A DNA stretch of 37,907 nucleotides from Tortispora ganteri (Eukaryota): positions 62,001 to 99,907 of the forward strand of contig PPNB01000027.1 of the NCBI GenBank assembly GCA_003707115.1. The letters are read 5' to 3'. Position numbers and translations under genes: made by a program. The notes under the pieces were generated by a model that worked only from the letters and a program-made list of their open reading frames with translations, was not told where the DNA came from and ran no database searches. Position 1 is the stretch's first letter, and the number at the start of each line of letters is the position of its first letter. Positions 1-1,010 of this stretch are shown piece after piece.

Positions 1-562
1 TTGCGTACCCATCAGGGTCGACGCGTCTGACTCTCATAATCTGAGGACCAGTGAAGCGGTAGTGACCACGCGAACCTGTAATTTCGGCAAGATGCTGAGA
101 GCCGCCAACTTCATTCTCGTGAGCGTCTACTTCAAGTTTAGTAGAGTGGTCTTGCCAGTTAGGACTATACTGACGAGCAAATGCATTAGGGGCCAATTGG
201 TTTAAGAGAGAATCGGATGGACTAAGCGAGCTGAGTAGTTCTGGAGCTTGAGCTGACCAGTAAACTGAACCATGTTGTTGGCAAGCCCCTGACAACGCTT
301 TCACGCGAGAGAAGTCAAAACCCGAAACTTTTAGTCGCTGCAATATGATATCAAGAGCCTCGAGCCACATAGCTACAGGAGCAAATATTTCTTGTTCCTT
401 TTCATTATGTAAAACTCCATGCACTGTGTTATATTTTGGCAGATCTTCGTCGAATTTGAGTGTTTCGTGGACGACGAGATCCAGTCGGGAGTCAACTCCT
501 ATGACTTTTAATTGCTGCGTGGAAAGGTCAAAACCAAGGAACACGTCCGCTTTTAAAGACAT
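1..562 (-). CDS. XKS1: Xylulokinase (FGGY kinase family), 5' part; continues past the left edge
   Basis: Manual translation from ATG at 562: MSLKADVFLGFDLSTQQLKVIGVDSRLDLVVHETLKFDEDLPKYNTVHG...PVAMWLEALD...LSGACQQHGSVYWS. LGFDLSTQQLK, PVAMWLEALD and SGxCQQHGSVYWS are hallmark yeast Xks1 motifs. Not in the ORF track. Confidence 0.95.
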   Translation of the reverse strand, partial: MSLKADVFLGFDLSTQQLKVIGVDSRLDLVVHETLKFDEDLPKYNTVHGVLHNEKEQEIFAPVAMWLEALDIILQRLKVSGFDFSRVKALSGACQQHGSVYWSAQAPELLSSLSPSDSLLNQLAPNAFARQYSPNWQDHSTKLEVDAHENEVGGSQHLAEITGSRGHYRFTGPQIMRVRRVDPDGYA

Positions 563-570
563 AGCGTAAT

Positions 571-834
571 TTACTTAGTATCCCAGGCTAGCCACTTTTC
601 TGGATTTTTGTTAAACTGAGGCCAGGGGGGTATAACCACTACAGCAAGAGCGACAGATAGAATGGCAAATGTAACCCAGCAGTAGAGAGAGCTTTGGAAT
701 GTGAAACCGACAAGAAAAGCAATAAGTGCAGCAATATAAGTGCCAATATGTACAACTTTATCACAGAACAATTGACTTGGAAAATCAATTGGCCCTTCAA
801 TCACAGAAGAAATGTCGGCAATTAGTTGGTCCAT
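571..834 (-). CDS. SPC1: Signal peptidase complex 12 kDa subunit (SPC12/Spc1)
   Basis: 87 aa; EGPIDFPSQ N-terminal motif, two hydrophobic TM segments, and C-terminal VVIPPWPQFNKNPEKW, typical of the SPC12 family. Confidence 0.9.
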   Translation of the reverse strand: MDQLIADISSVIEGPIDFPSQLFCDKVVHIGTYIAALIAFLVGFTFQSSLYCWVTFAILSVALAVVVIPPWPQFNKNPEKWLAWDTK

Positions 835-1010
835 TTAGTTTTTGGGGGAGTCTAGCCTTTATATGTGCGTGGATGGATTAGTTATGATTTCATACGGTTG
901 CCATGGGCGAAATTTACCCGTGTAATATTTATCCGGGGAGCACACACTATTACGTATTGTGCAATTTGAGATTCATTAAATTCATTTTTGTGCGTAATGC
1001 ATTGATAATA

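Follow-up and report, generated by a model that had tools for sequence, protein, structure and literature searches.

SPC1 and XKS1 lie almost end to end in Tortispora ganteri

We analysed a stretch of 37,907 nucleotides from the yeast Tortispora ganteri (contig PPNB01000027.1, positions 62,001 to 99,907), hereafter the window, at one end of which two minus-strand genes follow each other with hardly any DNA between them. The first, SPC1 (SPC1/SPCS1), encodes the 12-kDa subunit of the signal peptidase complex, and the second, XKS1, encodes xylulose kinase (Table 1). Reading the minus strand directly, we found the SPC1 stop codon (TAA) at 573-571, the 8-nt spacer ATTACGCT at 570-563 and the XKS1 ATG at 562, which agrees to the nucleotide with an initial annotation of this DNA and with its remark that the junction leaves no room for an XKS1 promoter or an SPC1 3' end. 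The locus thus consists of two complete, conserved and non-overlapping open reading frames (ORFs) on the same strand, separated by a very short distance.

Both gene identities proposed in the initial annotation proved correct. SPC1 matched the Pfam family SPC12 with 70.5 bits against a curated cutoff of 23.6 (E=1.3e-19) and carried the conserved IDF..Q and PPWP motifs of that family; in an alignment of 33 sequences it retained the invariant residues I16, D17, F18, Q21 and G43 as well as the P69/W71/P72 columns. A sensitive protein search returned 182 homologues, the closest of them 45% identical, while a word-index protein search with SPC1 gave no match, and the SPC1 gene of Tortispora caseinolytica appears to be unannotated in the protein libraries searched. 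The ORF at 834..571 was the sole SPC12-like ORF in the window, and its start is unambiguous because an in-frame TAA (837-835) immediately precedes its ATG.

The 187 residues of XKS1 encoded in the window are 95% identical, over 100% of the query, to the xylulose kinase of T. caseinolytica (563 aa), with coinciding N-termini, and 49-58% identical to the 14 other budding-yeast xylulose kinases aligned. They also matched FGGY_N and include the ATP-binding motif GFDLSTQQLK from residue 10, which on these similarities makes the product an FGGY xylulose kinase orthologous to fungal XKS1. Since the start has been kept and the protein so closely preserved in T. caseinolytica, XKS1 must, judging from this comparison, be under selection and expressed.

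Two other ways of joining or separating the genes were discarded. Stop-codon readthrough yielding an SPC1-XKS1 fusion was excluded, as the ORFs do not share a frame (11 nt separate the first base of the stop from the ATG), and an intron removing SPC1 was dropped when inspection of SPC1 by eye revealed no 5' splice site of the GTATGT or GTAAGT type. Upstream, LOS1 (exportin-t) ends 176 nt before SPC1, and the region between them must hold the LOS1 3' end signals together with an SPC1 core promoter, which is possibly shared with XKS1.

Table 1 Features of the SPC1-XKS1 locus, of the second tight pair in the window and of the related metagenomic contig L036.
Feature	Coordinates	Strand	Details
SPC1	571..834	minus	87 codons plus TAA; ATG at 834
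Spacer ATTACGCT	563..570	minus	8 nt between SPC1 stop and XKS1 start; read directly
XKS1, 5' part	2..562	minus	First 187 codons, gene continues beyond the window; ATG at 562-560
ATG-free interval	563..831	minus	269 nt, whole SPC1 body plus spacer; candidate leader scanned to the XKS1 AUG
LOS1-SPC1 intergenic region	835..1010	minus	176 nt; upstream ATGs at -59 and -71 from the SPC1 start
TATA-like box TATAAAGG	856..863	minus	First T 29 nt before SPC1 ATG and 301 nt before XKS1 ATG; putative function
RRG8-like ORF	16952..17584	minus	210 codons; weak Pfam RRG8 match (E=3e-5, below cutoff)
Cytochrome P450 gene	15576..16946	minus	Pfam p450 E=3.9e-38; begins 5 nt past the RRG8-like stop
SPC1 on contig L036	720-959	+	79 codons
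XKS1 on contig L036	1334-3121	+	595 codons

The whole body of SPC1 is free of ATG triplets

In the 275 nt that run from the SPC1 ATG through the XKS1 ATG (a start-to-start distance of 272 nt), those two are the only ATGs in any frame. The initial annotation had claimed as much, adding that several would be expected by chance, and the counts bore this out: from the SPC1 start to the XKS1 start we expected 4.4 ATGs from the local base composition, or 4.6-4.9 from the strand-wide ATG frequency, and observed 0.

How unusual this is was estimated in three ways. Only 14 of the 1,341 ATG-to-ATG gaps on both strands of the window measured at least 272 nt, the SPC1-XKS1 gap being the 5th longest on the minus strand. 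Among codon-aligned 272-nt segments of the 17 other coding sequences in the window, 50 of 8,832 (0.57%) lacked an ATG, and shuffling the codon order of SPC1 gave zero ATG in 2.0% of 2,000 shuffles. A complete absence of ATG is therefore unlikely by chance, at about 0.6-2%, and a fair estimate specific to SPC1 is about 1-2%.

Most of the depletion arises at the level of the protein. SPC1 has no internal Met, nor any N, D, H or Y followed by V, A, D, E or G, so that a synonymous ATG is possible at only three of its codon pairs; all three avoid it. When the protein was resampled with synonymous codons, 3,794 of 20,000 draws (19%) contained no ATG. To place this composition in context we used a set of 125 SPC1 homologues of 66-115 aa, taken from 150 listed. 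The N/D/H/Y-V/A/D/E/G dipeptides were absent from 16 of these 125, and a protein compatible with zero ATG, having neither these dipeptides nor an internal Met, was found in 7, which we count in favour of the dicistronic interpretation.

The adjacency of the two genes is old

A metagenome scan with the XKS1 alignment recovered 80 loci, to whose upstream DNA a profile made from the SPC1 alignment was applied. SPC1 was present upstream of XKS1 in one of the 80, contig L036 (profile E=2.8e-18), where it directly precedes XKS1 on the same strand, across a spacer of 374 nt. The XKS1 of this contig shares 64% identity with its Scheffersomyces and Suhomyces counterparts, and on account of this identity we assign L036 to a distant budding-yeast order. 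The same neighbour in the same orientation would be very unlikely to have arisen by coincidence in two yeasts so far apart. Because L036 has the same gene order with a spacer of normal length, we infer that the SPC1-XKS1 adjacency is ancestral, predating the split of very distant budding-yeast orders, and that the spacer later collapsed in the Tortispora lineage. If the tight junction is such a derived collapse, the room for an XKS1 promoter would have been removed with it.

Of the synteny in related yeasts that the initial annotation had proposed as a check, L036 shows the order of the genes, with a long spacer that contains ATGs. Between its two starts there are four of them, at 724, 989, 1253 and 1270, and for this reason the signature of coupling appears to be specific to the collapsed locus. 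Most of the other XKS1 metagenomic loci were closest to filamentous ascomycetes or distant, and were little informative. Besides L036 only three, L005, L021 and L001, were closest to budding yeasts, and SPC1 was not found upstream of XKS1 in the 2,261, 896 and 363 nt available in them, respectively, although an SPC1 split by an intron would escape this search. A metagenome scan with SPC1 alone found no relative.

A shared promoter and leaky scanning may express both genes

From this layout we infer a shared transcript, the position of its start and leaky scanning itself, and we regard SPC1-XKS1 as a credible dicistronic candidate for which a single mRNA is plausible. In the sequence of events that we tentatively favour, the collapse of the spacer to 8 nt in the Tortispora lineage would have removed the separate promoter region of XKS1, and a single promoter upstream of SPC1, including the TATA-like box at -29, would yield transcripts with both ORFs. 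Since 8 nt are too short for the 3' end of SPC1 to be formed before XKS1, the next AUG on every SPC1 mRNA would be that of XKS1, so that 40S subunits missing the SPC1 AUG would start at XKS1. The SPC1 AUG may be inefficiently recognised, given the U at -3 and a leader that is probably no more than a few nucleotides long; some of the scanning 40S subunits would then bypass it, cross 272 nt devoid of AUG and initiate at the XKS1 AUG, and the outcome would be a steady low level of Xks1 alongside Spc1.

The position of the putative promoter is consistent with a leader of this kind. The box is the sole match to TATA[AT]A[ATG] within 400 nt upstream of SPC1, and at a frequency of 0.71 such motifs per kb per strand the 176-nt intergenic region should hold about 0.13 by chance. 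The other TATA-like boxes of the window lie at least 45 nt before their ATGs, except for one at -9 (403-aa ORF, 9182-10393). Very short leaders make the first AUG leaky, and the Tortispora lineage split off no later than that of Yarrowia. In Y. lipolytica, Lu and Lin found the TATA element some 30 bp upstream of the start site; the scanning mode of initiation typical of S. cerevisiae arose after the Yarrowia split (PMC7849388). If initiation in Tortispora ganteri proceeds as in Yarrowia lipolytica, transcription would start at the SPC1 ATG or only a few bases away from it.

Several observations weigh against a shared mRNA decoded by leaky scanning. The evidence from the TATA-like box is a single motif match. 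The bases at -3 are T for SPC1 and G for XKS1, as first reported, but their use as a weak versus a strong signal fails: a pyrimidine occupies -3 in 10 of the 20 putative starts of the window, a caveat that the initial annotation had itself raised and that holds, and the -3 context, being non-discriminating here, carries little weight. Synonymous codon choice alone was not significant (P=0.19), and SPC1 genes are in general intrinsically ATG-poor, with no internal Met in 43 of the 125 homologues. In L036 the SPC1 gene has one internal ATG in its 240 nt despite a normal spacer; being nearly ATG-free without any coupling, it tempers the statistics on how rare an ATG-free SPC1 is. Nonsense-mediated decay would be expected to act on a yeast mRNA with ~1.7 kb between the end of its first ORF and the poly(A) tail. 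Translation of the second ORF is reported to be normally poor in bicistronic transcripts of yeast (PMC8573964, PMC11952965). A last group of objections comes from a second tight pair in the window, considered below with the main alternative.

Alternative explanations

We weighed four explanations. Leaky scanning from a shared promoter comes first, a transcription start site inside SPC1 a close second, staggered starts around the SPC1 ATG a distant third, and termination followed by reinitiation last.

The second of these is a serious contender. Here the two genes would form overlapping monocistronic units, with the XKS1 start site inside SPC1 and SPC1 transcripts ending at a cryptic poly(A) site in XKS1, and the ATG-free 5' part of SPC1 would be a by-product of the composition of a small hydrophobic protein; that SPC1 proteins often lack Met, and that the L036 gene is nearly ATG-free in the absence of coupling, both fit this account. 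In compacted eukaryotic genomes, those of microsporidia for instance, transcription generally starts inside the upstream gene, and the window itself seems to offer an example. Two of its eight same-strand junctions are shorter than 10 nt, the 8-nt one described above and one of 5 nt between an RRG8-like ORF and a cytochrome P450 gene (Table 1). The RRG8-like ORF has internal ATGs at 17499, 17495, 17380 and 16978 (+85, +89, +204 and +606 of the ORF), and because of these four ATGs leaky scanning from its own promoter is unlikely to serve P450; on the sequence, a P450 start site inside the RRG8-like ORF is the simplest reading. As the pair most simply needs an internal promoter, such a solution would be available and workable in this genome. 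Tight packing therefore occurs in the window without a clean AUG-free upstream gene, which counts against the dicistronic interpretation of SPC1-XKS1.

The comparison of the two pairs is not one-sided. In ATG density SPC1 ranks lowest of the 20 coding sequences of the window (0 per 100 nt) and the RRG8-like ORF second (0.63), the rest ranging over 1.02-3.40, and the probability that both upstream partners of tight pairs take ranks 1 and 2 is 1 in 190. Within the RRG8-like ORF 402 nt (17380 to 16978) also pass without an ATG, more than anywhere else on the minus strand; this run stops 32 nt short of the P450 start, where an in-frame Met begins a tail of 8 codons. In both tight pairs, the DNA upstream of the second gene thus looks like a scanned leader. 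Much of the scarcity of ATG in the RRG8-like ORF comes from its G-poor composition (codon-shuffle P=0.21). This second pair also shows that leader-like DNA need not mean a shared promoter.

The extent of the ATG-free stretch at SPC1 speaks against an internal promoter. For an ordinary yeast leader only the last 50-100 nt before XKS1 would have to lack ATG, whereas the stretch reaches exactly to the SPC1 start; a shared promoter, whether combined with leaky scanning or with staggered starts, explains why the whole SPC1 body is ATG-free, and an internal promoter near XKS1 does not. We found no TATA-like motif within SPC1, and every SPC1 transcript would run over the internal promoter. As for the cryptic poly(A) site, an S. 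cerevisiae-type UACAUA...AAGAAA composite occurs 151 nt into XKS1 (378-412, minus strand), one of 3 in 32.3 kb of coding sequence, but the same composite matches none of the 19 real 3' flanks in the window and, being unvalidated in Tortispora ganteri, carries no weight.

Staggered transcription starts would make the choice between the genes transcriptional instead of ribosomal, an option we regard as improbable. The TATA-like box at -29 would fire at several positions around the SPC1 ATG, upstream starts giving SPC1 mRNA and downstream starts giving XKS1 mRNA with an AUG-free leader of ~260 nt, which would account for the ATG-free state of the whole SPC1 body. The box lies closer to its ATG than any other in the window apart from the one at -9, at a distance that resembles the ~30 bp between TATA and start in Y. 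lipolytica (PMC7849388), and pyrimidine-purine steps flank the SPC1 ATG on both sides. The proposal nevertheless combines one motif match with a mode of initiation extrapolated from another genus. Nor does it exclude leaky scanning, as leaders of 0-6 nt would leak too.

Termination-reinitiation, in which ribosomes finishing SPC1 would restart 8 nt downstream at XKS1, is very unlikely, given that reinitiation after an ORF of 87 codons is normally very inefficient and that this mechanism would not require an ATG-free first ORF. It does have a fungal precedent. In the operon-like IGG1/IGG6 short-spacer pairs of Glarea lozoyensis and of engineered fungi, two complete ORFs lie ~9 nt apart, much as SPC1 and XKS1 do, and the second is translated from the same mRNA by reinitiation that needs a specific 9-mer (PMC10352335). 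With the 9-bp IGG6 spacer (compared with 8 nt here), GFP placed after a full-length first ORF reached about half of the monocistronic level in S. cerevisiae, the spacer worked in three other fungi, and expression was abolished when translation of the first ORF was blocked (PMC10352335). The effect depends on sequence and length: versions of 21 and 15 nt gave from a few to about ten per cent of the signal, and variants of 7 nt, 5 nt, 13-17 nt and 26 nt, together with three others, gave almost none (PMC10352335). The T. ganteri spacer ATTACGCT is unlike that 9-mer, and the AUG-free SPC1 points instead to leaky scanning.

Comparison with known dicistronic loci

The initial annotation had likened this locus to the leaky-scanning signature of bicistronic genes in green algae, and the likeness agrees with what is described for them. 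The green-algal OST4 and TOM22 loci and the Drosophila stoned and Snapin loci have small membrane-protein first ORFs and use leaky scanning, with experimental support (PMC11291117). Like them, SPC1-XKS1 begins with a small, conserved membrane-protein ORF, has a very short distance between the ORFs and lacks an alternative AUG upstream of the second ORF; the first ORFs of the known loci also have a non-consensus start (PMC11291117, PMC7896298). For the algal and insect loci, long reads, ribosome profiling and mutagenesis have demonstrated the single transcript and the translation of both ORFs, whereas SPC1-XKS1 is a candidate from DNA sequence; in addition, the context of the SPC1 start, with T at -3, is indistinguishable from the local background and the host is a budding yeast.

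Bicistronic transcripts have been described in several fungi, among them S. cerevisiae, where they also involve co-transcribed tandem genes with short spacers, those that are highly expressed having the shortest (Wu and Cox 2021, PMC8573964). These pairs also yield monocistronic forms, often involve young genes and show less translation of the second gene (PMC8573964). In contrast, SPC1 and XKS1 are both ancient and conserved, and they are joined by an 8-nt spacer behind an AUG-free first ORF. In our literature searches, no budding yeast was reported to have a dicistronic pair of conserved genes that is AUG-depleted and uses leaky scanning; nor did we find a description of SPC1-XKS1 linkage, a paper naming both genes or a Tortispora paper on transcripts; in the literature on bicistronic genes, SPCS1 went unmentioned among the matches listed.

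In compacted genomes such as those of microsporidia and nucleomorphs, the loss of intergenic DNA makes transcripts include parts of neighbouring genes. The T. ganteri window differs from these, as its 20 genes in 37.9 kb amount to an ordinary yeast gene density and only some of its junctions have collapsed.

Implications of a shared mRNA

In textbooks, budding yeasts stand for the rule of one gene, one promoter and one mRNA, and the bicistronic transcripts known from yeast are mostly seen as noise or as repressors of translation. If SPC1 and XKS1 do share an mRNA decoded by leaky scanning, yeasts, an unexpected group, would have a natural equivalent of the dicistronic loci of algae and insects. 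One mRNA for two conserved genes, the first a housekeeping and the second a metabolic gene, would show how the loss of a promoter can be survived during genome streamlining, and the arrangement would offer a compact natural design for the co-expression of two yeast proteins at a fixed ratio. Even if XKS1 were transcribed from inside SPC1, the locus would be a clean case of a promoter and leader placed within the coding sequence of a neighbour and visibly constraining its protein sequence.

A bolder proposal, which we consider rather unlikely as a whole, is that Tortispora has obligate dicistronic nuclear genes created by intergenic collapse. SPC1 would then be at once a gene and the AUG-free leader of XKS1, and the ratio of Spc1 to Xks1 would be set by the ribosomes that miss the SPC1 AUG near the cap. 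Collapsed tandem junctions would form a genome-wide class, as the second, 5-nt junction in the window suggests, in which the upstream coding sequence is shaped by the translational needs of the downstream gene.

Other features of the window

Two convergent pairs in the window are also tightly packed, with 19 nt between the stops of ESP1 (separase) and the P450 gene (15557-15575) and 29 nt between those of an EF-hand protein gene and RPB6 (18030-18058). Judging from these distances, the 3' untranslated regions of both pairs must overlap the neighbouring gene.

Two gene models may be incomplete. The LOS1 ORF (1011-4736, 871 aa) starts at position 38 of the Xpo1 domain profile and is followed by a 1,110-nt gap without a long ORF, which may reflect an unrecognised 5' exon or a frame break. 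A 36-codon ORF (8638-8748, minus strand) lies 59 nt upstream of a SPA-domain gene (6914-8578) and, by its resemblance by eye to the N-terminal part, is probably the 5' exon of that gene across a short intron.

Finally, S. cerevisiae and many other budding yeasts are not known to have the ergothioneine synthase Egt1. A 785-aa protein encoded at 21585-23942 (minus strand) has the domain architecture of this enzyme, combining Methyltransf_33, DinB_2 and FGE-sulfatase.

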